Source: an uncultured Muribaculaceae bacterium
GTDB lineage: Bacteria > Bacillota_I > Bacilli_A > RF39 > UBA660
Direction of reading: 5' to 3'
DNA: 40,787 nucleotides
Assembly (NCBI GenBank): GCA_964457135.1
Contig: CAYWED010000002.1
Coordinates: 1-40,787, forward strand
Shown: positions 15,587-34,988 of the stretch, piece after piece
How the letters are laid out: the number at the start of each line of letters is the position of its first letter
Position numbering within the stretch: the stretch's first letter is position 1
Position numbers and translations under genes: made by a program
Notes under the pieces: generated by a model
Told to the model about the DNA's origin: nothing
The model's input: only the letters and a program-made list of their open reading frames with translations
Databases searched by the model: none

Positions 15587-17076
15587 GATATCCGAAATGG
15601 TATAAAATTTAAATTTGGATATCCGAAATTAAAAAAATACCCAATACACACCTTTATAGTACAATATTTTTGTTCAGAAAATTAGACTAAAGGAGGTATG
15701 TATATGGGTCGTAATTATTCTAACAAAAATTTATCTAGTTTGGAACTAGGTAATATTGAATTTTATTTAAATGAAGGAAAGGGTTATAGTGAAATTGGTA
15801 GACTACTAGATAAAGATGAAAGTACTATACGTAAGGAAGTAAAAAAGTATTCTTCTTACTTTGGTAGTCATAGAAAATGCTCGAACTGTCTTAACAAAGA
15901 TAATTGTCACGAGAAATATTTATGTGAAAGAATAGTAGACAAAATAAGGTGTTCCCAATGTAAATATTGTACTCATACAGTCAAGATTTGTCCCAACTAT
16001 AAGGTTAATATTGACTGTGAATTACTTAAGAAAAATCATCATGTTTGTAATGGGTGTGAATTATATCTTAAGTGTAGTAAAGTCAAAATTAAATATCATG
16101 CTCAAACTGCTATTAAGATGCATGATGCTGTTCAAAGAGTATCTAGGATTGATATTAAACTTGATAAATTTCCAGATGAATTTAAAGATTATATATCAGA
16201 TAGAATTAAGTATGGTATATCTCCAGATGTTACTTTAAACACTCTTTCCAAAAGATTTAAGATGTTTAAAATATCTACTCCTACTCTTTATGATTGGATA
16301 AACAAAGGCTTATTAAACTGTTGTAATATGGACTTAAGAAACAAAGTTTCAAGAGTTAGATATGGAAGTAATACTATTAAAAGAAATACTGTTAAAGGAC
16401 ATCAATTAAATGGTAGAAGCATAGAAGATTTATCACAAGAAGAGAGAGATAATAGACCATTAGGTATTGCTGAGTTTGATACTGTTGAAGGTATTAAAGG
16501 TGGCGAGTTATTATTTACTATTATGATACCTTGTTTTTCTTTAATGTTAGCATTTAAAATCGAAAGAAAAACACAAGAAGAAATAATTAGACAATTAGAT
16601 ATATTAGAAAGAAAATTAGTGAGATATTTTTATATACTATTTAAAAAAGTAATACCTGATAATGGAGTTGAATTTCTTGATTTTAAAGGACTTGAAAAAT
16701 CTATATTTAAATTATTAGATAAACGTTTAGAGATACACTATACTCACACTTATTCATCTTATGAGAAACCACATATCGAAAACAATCACATATTACTTAG
16801 ATGGCTAATTAAAAAGGGTTATGACATAACTTTATTATCAGCCGATGACATATTAGACATAATTAATAGACTTAATAATTATCCTAGGCCTAAGAAAGGT
16901 TATAGAACTCCGTTACAAATGTTAGAAGATAGCCTTGGTAGTGAAATATTAGAAATGTTAAATCTTTATCATATTCCAATAGAAAAGTTAAATATGAAAG
17001 ATATGAGAATCAAAAAGCAAGAGATTTAATATTTTTCTCTTGTTTTTTAAAATTCGGATTTCCATTTCGGATTTCC
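15587..17076 (+). mobile_element. IS30-family insertion sequence
   Basis: Left end GATATCCGAAATGG (15587-15600) and right end CCATTTCGGATTTCC (17062-17076) are inverted copies sharing an 11-nt core (ATCCGAAATGG). Each end also carries a second inner copy (15617-15630 and 17051-17061). One DDE transposase gene lies inside. Confidence 0.75.
15704..17029 (+). CDS. IS30-family DDE transposase
   Basis: AGGAGG sits 7 nt before ATG 15704. DDE context: AEFDTVEG ... PDNGVEF ... HIENNHILLRW, then YPRPKKGYRTPLQML. A Cys-rich segment lies near the N-terminus. Confidence 0.85.
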   Translation: MGRNYSNKNLSSLELGNIEFYLNEGKGYSEIGRLLDKDESTIRKEVKKYSSYFGSHRKCSNCLNKDNCHEKYLCERIVDKIRCSQCKYCTHTVKICPNYKVNIDCELLKKNHHVCNGCELYLKCSKVKIKYHAQTAIKMHDAVQRVSRIDIKLDKFPDEFKDYISDRIKYGISPDVTLNTLSKRFKMFKISTPTLYDWINKGLLNCCNMDLRNKVSRVRYGSNTIKRNTVKGHQLNGRSIEDLSQEERDNRPLGIAEFDTVEGIKGGELLFTIMIPCFSLMLAFKIERKTQEEIIRQLDILERKLVRYFYILFKKVIPDNGVEFLDFKGLEKSIFKLLDKRLEIHYTHTYSSYEKPHIENNHILLRWLIKKGYDITLLSADDILDIINRLNNYPRPKKGYRTPLQMLEDSLGSEILEMLNLYHIPIEKLNMKDMRIKKQEI

Positions 17077-20969: not shown

Positions 20970-21236
20970 TTATGAATGTGTTGAAAGAATGTCATTTACA
21001 ATTTTCAAACATTCTTGCTTTTTCTTTAACTTATTTATTACATCTGGATTTATAAATTCTATGTCTTTAACACATATTTTTTTTAAAAGCTTATTTTTTA
21101 TAATAAACTGAGTTTTTTTCATTTTTTTCACTTGTTTTTTTAAAATTTTGATATCTTCTTTAAGTTCACATTTGATAGTTGTAAGTTCTTGAATGTTTTT
21201 ATTTTTAATAAATATTTTGTATTCTTCTATATTCAT
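20970..21236 (-). CDS. small coiled-coil protein (paralogue of 21237..21467)
   Basis: 88 aa and Lys/Glu-rich. Its N-terminal pattern (EEY..IKNK..EL..IK.EL) is shared with the upstream ORF. Confidence 0.4.
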   Translation of the reverse strand: MNIEEYKIFIKNKNIQELTTIKCELKEDIKILKKQVKKMKKTQFIIKNKLLKKICVKDIEFINPDVINKLKKKQECLKIVNDILSTHS

Positions 21237-21467
21237 CTATTTATTTCCTTTATTTTTAATAATTTCTTCTAACTTTAATAAATATTCTTTATAAACACTA
21301 AGTTTAGTATCTATTTGTCCAAATCCCCAAGGTACATCCTCTGGATGTCTTGATAATCTTTCTAAATCCTTAATTTCTTGTGACAATTCATTTTTAATAT
21401 TCTCTAATTCTTTTTTGCTTTTATTTTTAATTTCTTTAGCATATTGTTCTGGACTAATTAATTCCAT
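21237..21467 (-). CDS. small coiled-coil protein
   Basis: 76 aa with an upstream GGAGG RBS. Its stop abuts the next start. Confidence 0.45.
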   Translation of the reverse strand: MELISPEQYAKEIKNKSKKELENIKNELSQEIKDLERLSRHPEDVPWGFGQIDTKLSVYKEYLLKLEEIIKNKGNK

Positions 21468-22915: not shown

Positions 22916-23614
22916 TTATTTCTTAAAAACCTCTAGATAATTTTCCACTATATACCCACCATCAAAATCAGAAATTTTCTTTATATCTTCATTATTCTTA
23001 AAAGTATAAAGTAAAGTGGGCTTTCTCTTAGAAAAATATTTAAATATATTGTTATCTAACAATTTATAATTAAAAGAAATAAAATCAGGTTTAGAGTAAA
23101 TTAATGAAGAAATCAGGTGAATTCTATTACTACTTAGAAGACCAACTTTATAGTCCATACAATATTTCTTTCTTAATTTTTTTAGGTACCTTACTATCCT
23201 AGGGTCAAAAGACTTTAAAATATATTCACCATTATAATTTCTTAAAATATCGATGACTGCATTTTCTAAACTATAGTCACACACATCATACTTAAGTTCT
23301 ATATCAAGTGCTACCTCACCATTAACAACATCTAAAACTTGCTTCAAAGTAGGTATAGAATAATTACTTGTTCCTAATTTATATTTAGATATATCTTTGT
23401 AACTTAAATCTTTAACACAAATGTCTATCCCACACATTCTCTTCAAATTATCATCATGAAACACAATTACAGTTCCATCTTTAATAATATGCGTGTCTAA
23501 CTCAATCATCTTTTTATTTCTAACTGACTCTAAAAAAGCAGGAATAGAATTTTCTGGGTACTTATATGAATAATTTCCTCTATGAATAATATGTAATCCT
23601 TTAAAACTCTCCAT
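22916..23614 (-). CDS. glycerophosphodiester phosphodiesterase (GDPD family)
   Basis: HRGNYSYKYPENSIPAFLESV ... ELDTHIIKDGTVIVFHDDNLKRM. GGAGG sits 7 nt before ATG 23614. Confidence 0.8.
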   Translation of the reverse strand: MESFKGLHIIHRGNYSYKYPENSIPAFLESVRNKKMIELDTHIIKDGTVIVFHDDNLKRMCGIDICVKDLSYKDISKYKLGTSNYSIPTLKQVLDVVNGEVALDIELKYDVCDYSLENAVIDILRNYNGEYILKSFDPRIVRYLKKLRKKYCMDYKVGLLSSNRIHLISSLIYSKPDFISFNYKLLDNNIFKYFSKRKPTLLYTFKNNEDIKKISDFDGGYIVENYLEVFKK

Positions 23615-23706
23615 AACTTTTCCTCCAAGAAAAATAATATCACAAAACACCTTTAACTAAAAGTAAAATTATGTTATTCTATATCTATAATAAAAGGGTG
23701 AGTAAA

Positions 23707-25458
23707 ATGTTCGGTAATATCATAAAAATAGATGGAAATTTAGTAGTAGTAAAAAATAATAATCAAGAAACTCATTCAGAACTCATGAATTGTCATGTGG
23801 TTTTTGAAGAAATAGATAGGAAAGTAATAGGCGAAATAACTAAAATAGGAAATAATGAAATAGAAATTCTTCTTGTAGGTGAAATACAAGATAATATTTT
23901 TTCTCCAGGTGTAGTAAAAAAGCCAGCGAGTAACACCTTAGCAAGAATAATAAATGCTAACGAATTAGAATTAATTATAGGAAAAAACGAAGTAAATAAA
24001 AACAACTTAATTATAGGTTCTTCTGCAATCTATAAGAGTTTTAATGTATCAATTCCACTAAATTCATTCTTTGCAAATCACAGTGCTATAATAGGTAATA
24101 CAGGTTCTGGTAAATCGTGTGGAGTTGCAAGACTATTACAAAATTTATTCCTAAAAAACAAAGAATTACCAATAAACTCACATATAGTCTTATTTGATGC
24201 TTACGGAGAATATACTAACACCTTTGACGAAATGAACAAAATACCTAATCTAGGATTTAAAAAATACACTACAAGAGTAACTAAACAAGATGAACAAATG
24301 TTAAAATTGCCAATTCATTTTCTAGGAGTAGATGACTTAGCAATCCTTCTTTCCGTGAGTGATGCAGATGTTATTCCTGTACTAGAAAAAACACTAAAAC
24401 TAGTTTACATATTCACAAGTCTTGATGAAAAAATTAAAGAATACAAAAATGATATAATAGCAAAATGTCTACTTGATATATTAAAAAGTGGAAAAAGTGG
24501 CTCACAAATGAGAGACCAAATAATAGCAGTTCTTTCAAAATATAATACCGAATCTTTAAATCTAGATTCAGTAATAATGCAACCAGGATACAATAGAACA
24601 CTAAAACAATGCTTAATAATTGATGAACAAGGAAAAATGAATGCAATACTTTTAGTAACAGAGTTTTTAAGTCAATTTGAAAGAGTAACACTAGATAATA
24701 TTGTAGTAGGGAAAGGTTTTATTTATACATTAAATGATTTATACTATGCCCTAGAATTTGCCCTTATAAGTGAAGGAACATTAAATAGTACTTTGTCTTA
24801 TAATAAAAATAACATTCTAAAAACAAGGTTGCAAACTATAATAAATAGTGAATATAGTAGTATCTTTGAAGTTAAAGAATATATAACAAAAGAAAAATAC
24901 ATAGAAAATTTATTCAAAAAAACAGATGGAACACTATGTCAATTAATTAACATTAACTTAAGCAATGTTGACGATAGATTTGCAAAAATATTGACAAAAC
25001 TTTATTCAAAATTATTCTTCACATACACTACAAAATTAAATCCTCGTGGTTCATTTAGTATTAACATAATCTTAGAAGAAGCCCATAGATATGTACAAAA
25101 TGACAATGATATAAACATAATAGGTTACAATATATTTGATAGAATTACCAAAGAGGGAAGAAAATATGGAACACTACTTACTTTCATAACACAAAGACCT
25201 AGTGAATTATCTTCTTCATCTCTAAGTCAATGTTCAAACTTTATAGTATTTAGAATATTCCATCCAAAAGATTTAGAAATAGTTAAAGGAATAAGCACAA
25301 ACCTTACGGAAGAAGGAGTAGAAAAATTAAAAACACTAAACCCTGGAACTGCAATTTGTTTTGGAACTGGTTTTAAAATTCCACTTATTGTCAAAATGGA
25401 ACTACCTGTACCTCTACCTGAAAGTACTAGTTTAAAAATAAATGGACTCTGGTACTAA
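23707..25458 (+). CDS. HerA/FtsK-type (DUF87) ATPase
   Basis: N-terminal HAS-barrel-like segment, Walker A GNTGSGKSCG, Walker B NIILEEAHRYV, then LLTFITQRPSELS. Confidence 0.75.
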   Translation: MFGNIIKIDGNLVVVKNNNQETHSELMNCHVVFEEIDRKVIGEITKIGNNEIEILLVGEIQDNIFSPGVVKKPASNTLARIINANELELIIGKNEVNKNNLIIGSSAIYKSFNVSIPLNSFFANHSAIIGNTGSGKSCGVARLLQNLFLKNKELPINSHIVLFDAYGEYTNTFDEMNKIPNLGFKKYTTRVTKQDEQMLKLPIHFLGVDDLAILLSVSDADVIPVLEKTLKLVYIFTSLDEKIKEYKNDIIAKCLLDILKSGKSGSQMRDQIIAVLSKYNTESLNLDSVIMQPGYNRTLKQCLIIDEQGKMNAILLVTEFLSQFERVTLDNIVVGKGFIYTLNDLYYALEFALISEGTLNSTLSYNKNNILKTRLQTIINSEYSSIFEVKEYITKEKYIENLFKKTDGTLCQLININLSNVDDRFAKILTKLYSKLFFTYTTKLNPRGSFSINIILEEAHRYVQNDNDINIIGYNIFDRITKEGRKYGTLLTFITQRPSELSSSSLSQCSNFIVFRIFHPKDLEIVKGISTNLTEEGVEKLKTLNPGTAICFGTGFKIPLIVKMELPVPLPESTSLKINGLWY

Positions 25459-26215
25459 AACAGGCACAAAACAAATCAAAAAGGAAGATTTTTGAGCTAG
25501 GTAAACACATTTATACTGGTGCTTATGGAGAAGGTGCACCACTTTTTTGGGCTCAAATAAATTATTCAAGTATAAATGGAACTTACCCTTTCCAAGGTGA
25601 CTTAGATATTGCTTATGGAGACTTAGGTATCGATTTAAATTACATTAAAAAGCTTTCTGCCCAAGTAAGCAAAGATGATTTGATTGATAATGAAAGAGAG
25701 AATTATAAAGACGTAATAAACACATACTACATAATAAATAAAAAACATTTAGAAGATATATTCTTAGGAAAAATATTTAGTTTTCTAGTAGTAGAATTGA
25801 TTTAAACAAAAAAATAGAATACAATAAAACTGAAATTAACAAAGAACTAAAAGAATGGATAGATTTTATAGGAGCGAGTACTTTAAAAGAATGTGAAAGT
25901 ATTGCCAAAAAGAATAAAATGTTAAGGGAAGTGTTAGAAGAAATGAAAAGATTTAATGAAGACTATTATAGAGTAGGGTATGATAGTAAAGAAATGTTAT
26001 ACAGAAGTAATCTAATAGATGCAAAAGAAGAAGGGCATGCAAGTGGATATAACGAAGGGCACAATAATGGATATATTGACGGAGAAAAATCAAAAGCAAG
26101 TGAAATAGCCAAAAATTTACTTTTAAATACCAATATGTCTATAGACATGATCAGTAGGAACACAGGACTATTAAAAGAAGAGATTATAGAGTTAAAAGAA
26201 AAATTAAATGATTAA
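25431..26215 (+). pseudogene. Rpn-family (PD-(D/E)XK nuclease 'putative transposase', TIGR01784-like) gene remnant, 5'-truncated and frameshifted
   Basis: There is no start codon. Frame 25431-25805 reads ...AQNKSKRKIFELGKHIYTGAYGEGAPLFWAQINYSS...IFSFLVVELI. The -1 frame 25781-26215 reads ...LKEWIDFIGAS...AKEEGHASGYNEGHNNGYIDGEKSKASEIAKNLLLNTNMSIDMISRNTGLLKEEIIELK. This is the characteristic Rpn C-terminus (EG repeats plus IAKNLL..G.....IS..TGLS.EEI). Confidence 0.55.
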
Positions 26216-26337: not shown

Positions 26338-27546
26338 ATGTTATTTCAAAAAAATAAGAAAAAAGAAAATGAACCAAAAAGGGAAATCACTAAACCTAAA
26401 TATTACAATTTTTTATCAGTAGATGTTGAAGAAAAATACTTAAAGCAATACTGGACTGATAATAATTATCAAATACCTTTATTTAATTCTTGGGAAGAAT
26501 TATACTCTTTCCTAAAAGATGACTCAAAGACAATAGCGCAAAAACTAGAAGTATTAAAGAATCTATTTTGTATTGAACCTTTAGGTTTAATGCATAAAGA
26601 AAACAATCCTATTCCAGATTACTTCTGGCAAGACACATCTTTAGATAGAAAAGTAAGAGTTTTATGTAGAATAAAGTCAACTACTTATTCCCATATGTCA
26701 ATTAAAGATTACCCTATAGAAGAAGATTACTACTATGATTTATTTATTAAAGATTTAGATGAAGATTTATTTTTAGGCTCTTGTGAATTAATGAGTTCGG
26801 GACTTTCTGTTTTATTAGATTGTGAGAAAGTTACACAAAAACAAAAAGAACAAATAGTAAGAAGTGCAATGAATTTTAAAGCAAGTTGTAATTTACAAAA
26901 AAATGATTATAACCACGAATATATTTTATTAGCATCATTAGAAAAAGATTGCTTTAATGAAGAATTCAAAAATGAAATATATGAAAAAGCAAAACAAAAT
27001 ATGTTATTAACAGGAAATTATGCTAGTAAAGCCGAAGATTTTAAATATTTCTTTTATCGTTTTTATAAAGATGAAAGTGTTAGCATTGAAGATAAAGTTA
27101 AAATCATTAATAAAGCACTACCAGATACTCAAGGGAATAACTATTCTAATCAATATTTATTCTATTTAGGAAATAAAAACATACCTTCATTTATTCAAAG
27201 AATAGTATTAAATCATTTTGTAAGTGCTACAGGTTATAATTTAGAACATTCACACCCAGCTCTATTTAAAAATATTAATACCTCAAATATAGTAAATTTA
27301 CTTGCTAATCCTAAAATAACAGACGATTTAAAAATAAAACTAATTAATTCAATTACGAATCCAGTATTACTTTGTTATTGTATAGTGCAAAATGAAATAG
27401 ATGATAATATTGTAGAATTATTAAAAACTAAACTTGAAACAATGAAAATACCAGAAACAAAAGAAGTATTAGAAATAATTAAATTAATGTTAACAGCTGA
27501 CACTCAGACAATTAAAAGACGCCTATTTTTAAAACAAGAACAATAA
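26338..27546 (+). CDS. hypothetical protein
   Basis: 402-aa ORF with a GGGAGG RBS. I recognise no motif. Confidence 0.55.
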   Translation: MLFQKNKKKENEPKREITKPKYYNFLSVDVEEKYLKQYWTDNNYQIPLFNSWEELYSFLKDDSKTIAQKLEVLKNLFCIEPLGLMHKENNPIPDYFWQDTSLDRKVRVLCRIKSTTYSHMSIKDYPIEEDYYYDLFIKDLDEDLFLGSCELMSSGLSVLLDCEKVTQKQKEQIVRSAMNFKASCNLQKNDYNHEYILLASLEKDCFNEEFKNEIYEKAKQNMLLTGNYASKAEDFKYFFYRFYKDESVSIEDKVKIINKALPDTQGNNYSNQYLFYLGNKNIPSFIQRIVLNHFVSATGYNLEHSHPALFKNINTSNIVNLLANPKITDDLKIKLINSITNPVLLCYCIVQNEIDDNIVELLKTKLETMKIPETKEVLEIIKLMLTADTQTIKRRLFLKQEQ

Positions 27547-32854: not shown

Positions 32855-32883
32855 TTTAAAATATAAACTATCCATGCTATAAT
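32855..32883 (+). promoter_or_regulatory. promoter of the retron ncRNA/RT transcript
   Basis: TTTAAA (32855-32860), 17-nt spacer, then TGcTATAAT extended -10 (32875-32883). Confidence 0.45.
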
Positions 32884-32888
32884 AACCT

Positions 32889-33060
32889 TGCAGTAGTGAT
32901 TGGAAATTTATTTCCTTTCTTTAACGAGTCGTTAAGGGACTAATTTAATTAAGATAATCAAAATAGTAATATTCCAAGGGACTTCCCTACACTTCATGTA
33001 GCCGCTACGCGTTGCTTCGCTAAAATCCATTTTCATATTACTCTTATCTTTAGTACTGCA
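32889..33060 (+). ncRNA. candidate retron msr-msd RNA
   Basis: It lies between the promoter and the RT. Flanking inverted repeats are TGCAGTA (32889-32895) and TACTGCA (33054-33060). Two 5' hairpins span 32902-32915 and 32918-32938. A long imperfect stem pairs 32951-32972 with 33035-33050 and encloses a locally GC-rich core. Confidence 0.5.
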
Positions 33061-33142
33061 CTTTTGGGGGTGGCAAAATTAATAAAATAAACTTTAATTT
33101 TGCTATCTCTAATTAAATATATAAAACCAAGGAGTAAATCAC

Positions 33143-34117
33143 ATGTGGAAATAAACAGGCACAAAAGAATGCAATGAATTTTTATTATCTCTAAGATTAT
33201 TAAATTGTAAAAATGAAAAGAAATACATAAAAACATTATATTCACTAAGTAACAATAAAGAAAATAATTACAAAATATACAAAATAAAAAAACATAATGG
33301 AAAATTAAGAACTATTTATGAACCAAATAAAATATTAAAACATGTCCAAAGACAAATCTTATCGAATATTCTAAACAATAAAAAAATATCCAAATATGCA
33401 AAAGCTTATCATAAAGGTGATTCACTAAAAGACAATGCCATTCCTCATGTCAATAAAGACATAATACTAAAATTAGATATTAAAGATTTTTTTGGAAACA
33501 TAAATTTTTATAATATATATAATGCCTGTTTTCCATTAGAGTACTTTCCTCCAAGCGTAGGAATGCTTTTAACTTACCTATGTACTTATAAAGATTTTCT
33601 TCCACAAGGGGCACCAACATCTTCTTATATTTCAAACTTAGTTATGAAAGACTTTGATGAAACTCTTGGTGCTTATTGTGAAGAAAACAAAATATCTTAC
33701 ACAAGATATGCAGATGACATGACTTTTTCAGGAAATTTTAATCCTAAAGAAATAATCATAAAAGTAAGAAAAATGCTTGCACCTCTAGGATTAGAACTAA
33801 ATAAAGATAAAATACATGTAATAAAAAAATCCAGAAGTCAAAATGTTACAGGCATAGTAGTTAATGAAAAAGCATAAACAAGTAGTAAATACCGTAAAAG
33901 TATAAGACAAGAAATATACTACATAAAAAAGTTTGGATTAACTTCACATCTAGAAAAGAAAAATATAAATATAGCTCCTAAAAAATACATTGCTCAGTTA
34001 TATGGAAAAGTATTATATGTTCTACAAATAGATGAAAAAAATAAAGAATTTCAAAATTATAAACAATTTTTACAATTGTTAAAAAACAACAAATCTAACC
34101 CTAATTTTAACGCGTAG
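33143..34117 (+). pseudogene. retron-type reverse transcriptase with two in-frame TAA codons
   Basis: A single frame of 325 codons with AAGGAG RBS (33129-33134) and ATG 33143. Motifs: NAIPH (33434-33448), LDIKDFF, QGAPTSS, YADD (33707-33718) and VTGIVVN. In-frame TAA at 33152-33154 and 33875-33877; terminal TAG at 34115-34117. Confidence 0.8.
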
Positions 34118-34136
34118 ATACTAACTTTTATCATAG

Positions 34137-34165
34137 TTGACAACAACCCTAAAATTTTGTAAAAT
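34137..34165 (+). promoter_or_regulatory. promoter of the membrane/AT-hook protein gene
   Basis: TTGACA (34137-34142), 17-nt spacer, TAAAAT (34160-34165). Confidence 0.5.
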
Positions 34166-34190
34166 TACTATTAGGATAGAGGTGGCTAAT

Positions 34191-34988
34191 GTGAAAAATA
34201 CTTTAAAAAGAATAGATTTGTGTTTAATAAACCAATTAATCTTATCAGTAATCGTGCTACTAATAGGTGTTGTAGTAACAATATTCAAATCATTTGGGTT
34301 AATTGATATAGTTTTATATATTTCATTATTATTTTATATTTACTCATTTTTTAGCATACTACTATATTTTATAAGAAGAAAAGAAGGAGATTACGAACTT
34401 TTACTATTATCATTAATTAATATAATAACAGCAACATTTATGTTTGTATTTAAAAAAGATAATCCTCCAATGATACTAGGTGCAGCAATGACTATTTATA
34501 CAATATTGTTAGTAATAAATAGGGGAGTAAAAATTTTAAAATTAAAAAGCGAAAACAATTTTATGTGGGTAGTAAAATTTTTAGTAACATTCTTAATTGC
34601 ATTTTTAGGAATGCTTACAACATATAATTTGTTTAACGAAGTTACAGTACAAACATTAATGTTTGGATTCTACTTTATGAGTTTAGGATTTATGACAACA
34701 ATAGAAAATCTAATTGAAATTTTTATAACTGATACAATATTTAAAAAAATACTATCAAAAATATTAGAAGATGAAAATGTAAAATTAGAAGAAATAATAG
34801 AAATAGTTGATTTAGATAGTACTAAATCAGAATCTAAACCAAAAACAGTAAAAGTAAAAAAAGAAGCGTCAACTGTTACTAAAAAAGCAGGTAGACCAAA
34901 AAAAGAAACTAAGACTAAAACAACAAAAAAAGAGGAAACCCCTACACCAAGAAGAGTAGGTAGACCTAGAAAATCAGATATAAGGTAA
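34191..34988 (+). CDS. six-TM membrane protein with a Lys-rich C-terminal tail carrying two AT-hook (GRP) motifs
   Basis: GTG 34191 lies 5 nt after AGAGGTGG. Six hydrophobic helices by eye. The tail reads ...KKAGRPKKETKTKTTKKEETPTPRRVGRPRKSDIR, with GRP at 34890-34898 and 34959-34967. Confidence 0.65.
   Translation: MKNTLKRIDLCLINQLILSVIVLLIGVVVTIFKSFGLIDIVLYISLLFYIYSFFSILLYFIRRKEGDYELLLLSLINIITATFMFVFKKDNPPMILGAAMTIYTILLVINRGVKILKLKSENNFMWVVKFLVTFLIAFLGMLTTYNLFNEVTVQTLMFGFYFMSLGFMTTIENLIEIFITDTIFKKILSKILEDENVKLEEIIEIVDLDSTKSESKPKTVKVKKEASTVTKKAGRPKKETKTKTTKKEETPTPRRVGRPRKSDIR

Follow-up and report, generated by a model that had tools for sequence, protein, structure and literature searches.

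Retrons of the Retron-Eco5 (Ec107) branch, which belongs to clade 2 of the retron reverse transcriptases (RTs), carry no associated protein and are sister to the retrons linked to a phosphoribosyltransferase (PRTase) (Mestre et al. 2020, PMC7736814). Ec107 was outside the set of retrons that Millman et al. cloned with their predicted effector genes for defence assays. In a 2026 survey of metagenome-derived genomes, Ec107_like stood first among the most often detected models of the msr/msd noncoding RNA (ncRNA). Here we analyzed a stretch of DNA of 40,787 nucleotides (nt) from an uncultured bacterium (contig CAYWED010000002.1 of the assembly GCA_964457135.1), which is referred to as the window below. 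An earlier reading made from the letters of this DNA and a list of its open reading frames (ORFs), termed here the sequence-only reading, had noticed a retron RT gene interrupted by two in-frame TAA codons. Our analysis indicates that the locus is probably a real pseudogene, namely an Ec107-like orphan retron in which two single-base changes to TAA disabled the RT very recently.

The window locus shares with Retron-Eco5 (Ec107) and the Ec107-like branch of clade 2 (PMC7736814) the best hidden Markov model (HMM) match, a promoter-msr/msd-RT layout of ~1.25-1.3 kb and the lack of a conserved accessory gene. Its next-best models are of type III-A, which this study gives as the sister group (PMC7736814). 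It differs from Retron-Eco5 in the host, which is an uncultured low-GC gut lineage of the Bacilli/'Tenericutes' type and not E. coli, as well as in the two nonsense codons of the RT gene and in a hairpin, a decayed duplicate of the 5' end of this gene, found between msd and the RT start. Orthologs found in the metagenome-assembled genomes (MAGs) of gut Bacilli (L001-L010, L020 and L027; P0001-P0120) share 73-81% amino acid (aa) identity, the sequence and structure of the ncRNA and the -10 box with the window. In contrast to the window, these orthologs have open frames and carry the Shine-Dalgarno (SD) sequence a few nt after the a2 arm of the ncRNA with no insert in between, and they lie in unrelated neighbourhoods. 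Among the solved structures, the RT of Ec86 (Retron-Eco1; 7v9u, 7v9x and 8qbk) is the closest to that of the window. The two have the same RT fold family and retron motifs in common, but Ec86, of type II-A, has an effector resembling nucleoside deoxyribosyltransferases and works as a tripartite toxin/antitoxin defence system, whereas the window locus has no associated effector.

The reverse transcriptase frame and its nonsense codons

A single frame of 325 codons, i.e. 324 codons plus the terminal TAG (34115-34117), starts on the forward strand from the ATG at 33143-33145, which the SD sequence AAGGAG (33129-33134) precedes with an 8-nt spacer. The frame is interrupted by TAA at codons 4 and 245 and nowhere else, and ACA follows directly 3' of each TAA. 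No in-frame ATG, GTG or TTG is found in 33155-33562, i.e. in the 136 codons after the first stop, so that the ORF list shows just a 104-aa piece at 33563-33877. The RT gene is single-copy in the window and native in composition (GC 24.3%, with 26% for the window).

With X put at both stop positions, the RT protein matched Pfam RVT_1 at 9.8e-23, and the best of the PADLOC models was RT_Ec107-like (4.7e-128, 424.9 bits). As the alignment to the latter spans model positions 2-305 of 307, the homology runs across the second stop. The runner-up was RT_III-A, and all 25 of the 25 matches listed were retron RT classes. The window RT and the ortholog P0001 shared 75% identity over 317 aa in one frame (tblastn). 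The search against the sequences in the PDB was conducted with a query of 240 aa, the first residue of which corresponds to RT codon 5. The best 15 matches were all retron RTs, with the Ec86 RT at the top (7e-34, covering residues 24-238), and the defence-associated RTs (DRTs) DRT2 and DRT3 matched at 1e-7 or weaker. DNAIPH (the NAxxH motif), QNVTGIVVNE (the VTG motif) and YADD are present in the window translation and conserved in the orthologs, and the Rfam search of the window gave no group II intron RNA. Judging from these matches, the RT frame is far beyond chance, and the RT is that of a retron of the Ec107-like branch, not that of a group II intron, a diversity-generating retroelement (DGR), an abortive infection (Abi) system or a DRT. 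The sequence-only reading had located AAGGAG, the spacer, the ATG, the 325-codon frame, the TAG and both TAA codons correctly, and the lack of an in-frame start and the three motifs (NAxxH, VTG and YADD) on which it relied were found as it had described. Its retron call agrees with the best PADLOC model, the top 15 PDB matches and the structured msr/msd upstream. The reading had named a placement among group II intron, DGR or Abi RTs as fatal to this call, and the HMM search put the RT in a retron class.

The RT gene was compared at the DNA level with those of 11 close orthologs in species-representative genomes (73-77% identity; gut MAGs assigned to uncultured Bacilli, 'Tenericutes' and Mycoplasma). 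The RT frames are open in all of the 11 orthologs, in which codon 4 is TAC (nine orthologs) or TAT (two orthologs) and codon 245 is constantly CAA (11/11). Among 109 aligned homologous proteins, Tyr occupies the position of codon 4 in all and Gln that of codon 245 in 108, the remaining homolog having Lys, and neither site is a stop in any of them. Furthermore, none of the 42 family loci that were read as DNA, a level at which pseudogenes can still be recognized, has an in-frame stop. As the sense codons are conserved in the orthologs, each TAA represents a one-base nonsense change: in codon 4 the third base turned from C or T into A, and in codon 245 the first base turned from C into T. The amino acids replaced differ between the two sites (Tyr in the first case, Gln in the second), and the stop at codon 245 would cut off 80 C-terminal residues. 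An open RT frame, which a functional retron requires, is absent here, there being two in-frame TAA codons and no alternative start. On the profile matches and the ortholog codons, the locus is a retron by descent and a pseudogene by state.

The two stops share the context TAA-ACA (ATAAACA), which was considered as a signal and rejected: ACA makes up 3.4% of the host codons, and two different changes at different positions of the 7-mer gave rise to the two stops. In the whole window, ATAAACA occurs 22 times on the forward strand versus once on the reverse strand. This 22:1 asymmetry largely reflects the skew of A over T on the forward strand (A 42% versus T 32%; 930 versus 341 7-mers of the composition A5T1C1), and is not significant after multiple-testing correction. 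Frameshifting at the stops was dismissed, since the zero-frame homology resumes straight after each TAA. Likewise, gene conversion of the TAA at codon 4 from the upstream duplicate described below, which also has AAATAAAC, found no support, as the best alignment puts this 8-mer elsewhere than at codons 3-5.

The noncoding RNA, its promoter and a lineage-specific insert

Directly upstream of the RT gene and on the same strand, the window and 12 relatives have an ncRNA block conserved at the nucleotide level (Table 1). The conserved block opens with the extended -10 box, followed by the a1 arm (TTGCAGTAGTGATTGG), and closes with the a2 arm (TTAGTACTGCA), the latter finishing at 33060. The minimum free energy fold of the window ncRNA displays the retron architecture composed of the a1/a2 stem, two msr hairpins and the msd stem (-59.3 kcal/mol, z -3.9). 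The consensus structure of the 12 intact relatives contains 39 pairs, with 97.6% of the cells paired versus 32-51% when the partners were slid by 1-3 columns. Compensatory double changes were found in four of the pairs, one of which belongs to the a1/a2 stem (L027 has GCAGTGG pairing with AGCACTGC). Under rigid threading, the window ncRNA keeps 35 of the 39 consensus pairs versus 36-39 in the intact relatives, and at least one of the four missed pairs is an artefact of a 3-nt longer loop, as the corresponding hairpin pairs perfectly in the free fold. G32896 (alignment column 12) is invariant and the sole unpaired base inside the a1/a2 helix in 13 of 13 sequences, being a candidate for the branching G (2'-5' branch point). 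There is no Rfam model for the Ec107-type ncRNA class. In the promoter, the -10 box (TATAAT or TACAAT) is located at an equal distance from a1 in 10 of 10 aligned orthologs, and was found in L027 and L028 as well. As far as conservation and fold can tell, both promoter and ncRNA are intact in the window.

The window departs from the relatives at the junction between the ncRNA and the RT gene. In the 12 relatives of which the junction was aligned, the SD sequence lies within a few nt of a2 and the RT starts ~20-26 nt past a2, whereas ~62-65 extra nt are present at the a2-SD junction of the window, an insert seen in none of the 12. A relic of the ancestral SD sequence was recognized at 33066-33073 (GGGGGTGG versus AGGAGGTAG in the relatives), and 33072-33126 aligned to 33158-33212 (RT codons 6-24) with a score of 21 versus 11.8 ± 2.6 in the null (p ~0.001, three nulls). 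By this alignment, the insert arose as a tandem duplicate of the 5' end of the RT gene itself and has since decayed. As the duplicate is ~70% identical to its source, the duplication is much older than the stops. Together with the relic SD, the insert forms a hairpin of 19 bp (33064-33112, -20.9 kcal/mol, z -5.2), of which the full sequence occurs once in the window and the stem pattern in none of the 28 related loci examined. The start signals of the RT gene, which had been described as intact in the sequence-only reading, are indeed present, and in the alignment the SD sequence and ATG are homologous to AGGAGGTAGTAAAA-ATG of the orthologs. The description needs one refinement: these signals now stand in a setting specific to this lineage, in which the decayed duplicate hairpin parts the ncRNA from the SD sequence.

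Table 1. Coordinates of the retron module and its parts in the window, with the evidence for each.
Feature	Position	Strand	Evidence
ncRNA promoter: -35-like TTTAAA (32855-32860) and extended -10 TGcTATAAT (32875-32883)	32855..32883	+	promoter scan 10/12, TG before -10
Retron ncRNA (msr-msd)	32889..33060	+	conservation in 13 sequences, fold, consensus structure
a1 arm	~32889-32900	+	begins the ncRNA block
msr hairpins	32902-32915 and 32917-32939	+	fold
Long msd stem	~32952-33049	+	fold
a2 arm	~33047-33060	+	ends the ncRNA block
Window-specific insert: relic SD and decayed duplicate of RT codons ~6-24	33064..33128	+	alignment, fold
SD, spacer and RT start	33129..33145	+	read in the sequence; homologous to orthologs
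RT pseudogene, Ec107-like	33143..34117	+	PADLOC, Pfam RVT_1, PDB, 76-81% identity to intact homologs
Nonsense codon 1, TAA for Tyr TAC/TAT	33152..33154	+	codon 4; 11 orthologs, 109 proteins
Nonsense codon 2, TAA for Gln CAA, just after VTG	33875..33877	+	codon 245; 11 orthologs, 109 proteins
Right edge of the retron module	34118..34135		L024 homology restarts at the promoter of the next gene

The module would represent a minimal orphan retron of ~1.25 kb, composed of the promoter, the msr/msd ncRNA and the RT, with no effector gene. On the basis of established retron biology, the RT of the intact relatives is expected to bind the folded ncRNA (msr), to prime from the 2'-OH of the conserved G beside the a1/a2 stem, and to reverse-transcribe msd into multicopy single-stranded DNA (msDNA). 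In the genome studied here, two single-base substitutions that arose independently would have abolished the RT, one turning TAC or TAT at codon 4 into TAA and the other doing so with CAA at codon 245. The latter is a GC-to-AT change, as the former would be if the ancestor had TAC, and this direction is favoured in AT-rich bacteria. Because of the stop at codon 4 and the lack of an in-frame start in the following 136 codons, no functional RT should be made and no msDNA should form, although transcription of the ncRNA may continue.

Age of the damage and alternative explanations

The score of the window RT against the PADLOC model (424.9 bits with the two positions masked) falls within the range of nine intact orthologs (412.7-431.6 bits). 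We calibrated the decay on P0001, an intact ortholog that scores 431.6 bits. Its coding sequence was given random AT-biased substitutions and the products were scored again on the same model, with three runs for each number of substitutions (N). The scores were 405, 418 and 413 bits at N=10, 389, 412 and 412 bits at N=20, and 362, 391 and 388 bits at N=40, i.e. a drop of 13-69 bits for 10-40 substitutions, or ~1.3-2 bits per substitution. On this scale, the window RT has probably received only a handful of unconstrained substitutions, fewer than about 10, a figure to be taken as approximate since it depends on the ancestral HMM score of the window lineage. An RT score in the intact range, next to a promoter, an ncRNA and an SD sequence that are all preserved, suggests that the inactivation was very recent. 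The window departs from the columns of at least 97% conservation at 8 residues, versus a mean of 1.1. These departures are conservative or as in more distant relatives (e.g. FPPS, YADD). We did not take them as degradation, as they reflect the outgroup position of the window relative to a densely sampled cluster, and the comparison of HMM scores was used instead. Defective copies elsewhere in the family, such as a frameshift in L038, were counted toward the plausibility of a pseudogene.

The approximate nature of the substitution count weighs against a real and very recent inactivation, and so do the following points. Exact-protein look-ups of the 104-aa fragment and of the upstream histidine kinase yielded no sequence of the same species. 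Among 5.8 billion proteins, the only match above 69% to the protein of the downstream gene was the one from the window's own contig, and the exact DNA pattern with NNN at the first stop had no match in the species-representative genomes. A metagenome scan for the RT gave nothing above 78%, and the best match to the RT protein was 81%. In these searches the species is a singleton, with no sequence of the same species or of a sister strain besides the window. In addition, two nonsense changes in a gene that has hardly decayed otherwise and is free of indels are a mild excess over neutral drift. Random substitutions in the RT gene give a stop in 6.5% of cases, and 61-68% of those stops are TAA. 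The probability of at least two stops is ~0.04 for 5 substitutions and ~0.13 for 10 substitutions, and one of the three simulations at N=10 also yielded two stops. An artefact, or selection for the knockout, would be compatible with this mild excess.

We regard it as unlikely that the RT is in reality intact and that the TAA codons arose from base-call errors, polishing or the consensus of mixed strains in a metagenome. Such an artefact of sequencing, assembly or consensus would fit a species seen once, probably in a metagenome assembly, with all relatives being MAGs, as well as a gene otherwise indistinguishable from the intact orthologs. It would also have parallels in the family, the contigs of which do hold artefacts (a chimera in L044 and a homopolymer slip in L038). 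However, two errors in 975 nt imply ~80 errors across the contig and ~5 stops in other genes, of which none was seen, and it is very unlikely that two random errors fall in one ~1-kb gene out of ~36 kb of coding DNA and both create stops. A systematic error specific to a motif is at odds with different base changes at different positions of the context, and indels, the typical error of long reads, are absent. Two stops in one gene are what is expected from relaxed selection after the first knockout.

The details of the two contigs, both of which are among the 42 family loci, are as follows. In L038 (1186-1265), the reading frame of an RT relative from a metagenome shifts near codon 25, where a homopolymer A8 became A7, this being either a defective copy or a sequencing slip. 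In L044 (56-283 and beyond), RT homology stops abruptly at codon 76 on a 1.4-kb contig of 1.45x coverage that turns GC-rich, and L044 is probably an assembly chimera rather than a true truncation.

The stops may be placed in an adaptive order, for example with the stop at codon 245 first, leaving a costly truncated RT, and the stop at codon 4 selected subsequently for silencing; alternatively, the loss of the retron itself may have been advantageous. We consider such a two-step knockout improbable. The mild nonsense excess (P ~0.04-0.13 under neutrality) is in its favour, as is the position of the codon-4 stop, which ends translation near the start with no restart for 136 codons. On the other hand, the excess is not statistically compelling, one of three neutral simulations at N=10 having reproduced it. 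Moreover, this is a variant of the recent-pseudogene explanation rather than a separate mechanism.

It is more improbable still that the TAA codons are decoded and the RT is made in spite of them, whether by programmed readthrough, by an ochre-suppressor tRNA of the host or by a suppressor tRNA borne by a phage, which would make the synthesis conditional. The absence of frameshifts and the intact signals are consistent with this idea. Tyr and Gln are the residues that near-cognate tRNAs insert at UAA, yet they are also the automatic outcome of one-step mutations and do not count as independent evidence. The stops occur in none of the 109 protein homologs and in none of the 42 loci at the DNA level, and the fact that they are not conserved in any relative counts against programmed readthrough. 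TAA is the main genuine terminator here, ending 26 of the 36 long ORFs in the window, where TGA and TAG serve as stops too. Both stops are followed by A, which also comes next after many of the normal stops in the contig. No suppressor tRNA is encoded within the 40.8 kb, of which the three tRNAs are ordinary (Leu-CAA, Glu-CTC and Met), and a single inserted amino acid cannot stand in for an invariant Tyr at one site and a near-invariant Gln at the other. If both stops had to be passed by basal readthrough, the yield would be negligible. To our knowledge, there is no bacterium or phage in which TAA has been recoded, and we found nothing relevant in the literature on interrupted or read-through retron RTs.

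Reassignment of TAA or genome-wide readthrough was rejected as well. The model matches of the gltX, trpS, tdk, response regulator and SpoVS genes are close to full length, and those of the histidine kinase and LdcB genes span the conserved domains. No other gene split by a stop was found in the window, where the remaining pairs of adjacent ORFs in the same frame are clearly separate genes. Since TAA is the usual terminator and no other gene is interrupted, codon reassignment can be ruled out, and the two sites would need different amino acids. At 20970-21467 on the reverse strand, two short ORFs (76 and 88 aa), resembling coiled-coil paralogs, stand head to tail in the same frame with one TAG between them and look like separate genes.

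A conditional switch, in which the full-length RT and msDNA would appear only with an ochre-suppressor tRNA, e.g. one delivered by a phage, has no direct support and is the least credible of the alternatives, although if true it would make the orphan retron a sensor of phages using suppressor tRNAs.

The sequence-only reading had ranked a recent inactivation above an error and an error above readthrough. This order is borne out by the intact-like RT score, by TAA being the usual terminator, and by the orthologous codons, which it had proposed to look up and which proved to be sense codons in the relatives (TAC/TAT at codon 4 and CAA at codon 245). The real pseudogene that we favour would be a new, recently inactivated member of a retron clade that is both known and common, and matters little beyond annotation. 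Orphan retrons of the Ec107-like group are very common in uncultured gut Bacilli. The locus shows that they do undergo loss, and appears to have been caught at the first stage of decay that can be seen, with two nonsense changes of the GC-to-AT type and the remainder intact. The locus can thereby serve as a small data point on whether retrons without an effector are under selection. Protein-based retron surveys would miss the locus or report only the 104-aa fragment. With an intact ncRNA and an RT repairable by two base changes, the locus could be a convenient natural 'off' control for orphan-retron function.

Gene neighbourhood of the module

We clustered all flanking ORFs of 12 loci with a length of at least 70 aa, counted from the first Met, and no gene beside the RT was shared across the 12. 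The ~1.25-kb retron module lies in unrelated neighbourhoods in these loci. The lack of a shared neighbour gene fits the orphan Ec107 branch (PMC7736814). Judged by these neighbourhoods, the locus is an orphan retron with no dedicated effector.

The gene downstream of the RT (34191-34988) encodes a membrane protein with multiple transmembrane segments, and has a GTG start and its own promoter with TTGACA at 34137 (34137-34165, promoter scan 11/12). The nearest relative of this gene, found in L024, is preceded by the same promoter with no retron upstream, and L024 1700-1760 matches window 34136-34200, which contains the promoter, the SD sequence and the GTG start. L024 is without the kinase found upstream in the window, and this comparison with an empty site fixes the right boundary of the module only. 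The membrane protein was considered as a type IV-like effector and rejected, being unlinked to the RT at the other loci and occurring without a retron.

In L027 (6372-7001) and L028 (1863-2492), a gene of the PemK toxin family is located on the reverse strand ~400 nt downstream of the closest relative of the window RT (81%), in the orientation opposite to it. This gene is not beside the RT at the other loci.

Elsewhere in the window, a HerA-like ATPase is encoded at 23671-25458 on the forward strand (PADLOC HerA PDLC04102, 6.6e-105), with no recognisable SIR2 or DUF4297 partner. Upstream of this gene is a GDPD phosphodiesterase gene on the reverse strand (22916-23650), and downstream are two ORFs on the forward strand (25919-26215 and 26338-27546; 98 and 402 aa) with no match in Pfam, NCBIfam or PADLOC. 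The HerA-like ATPase and the downstream ORFs may constitute an uncharacterised HerA-associated defence pair. The sole other mobile element recognised in the contig is an IS30-family transposase gene at 15698-17029 on the forward strand (NCBIfam NF033563, 1.1e-28).

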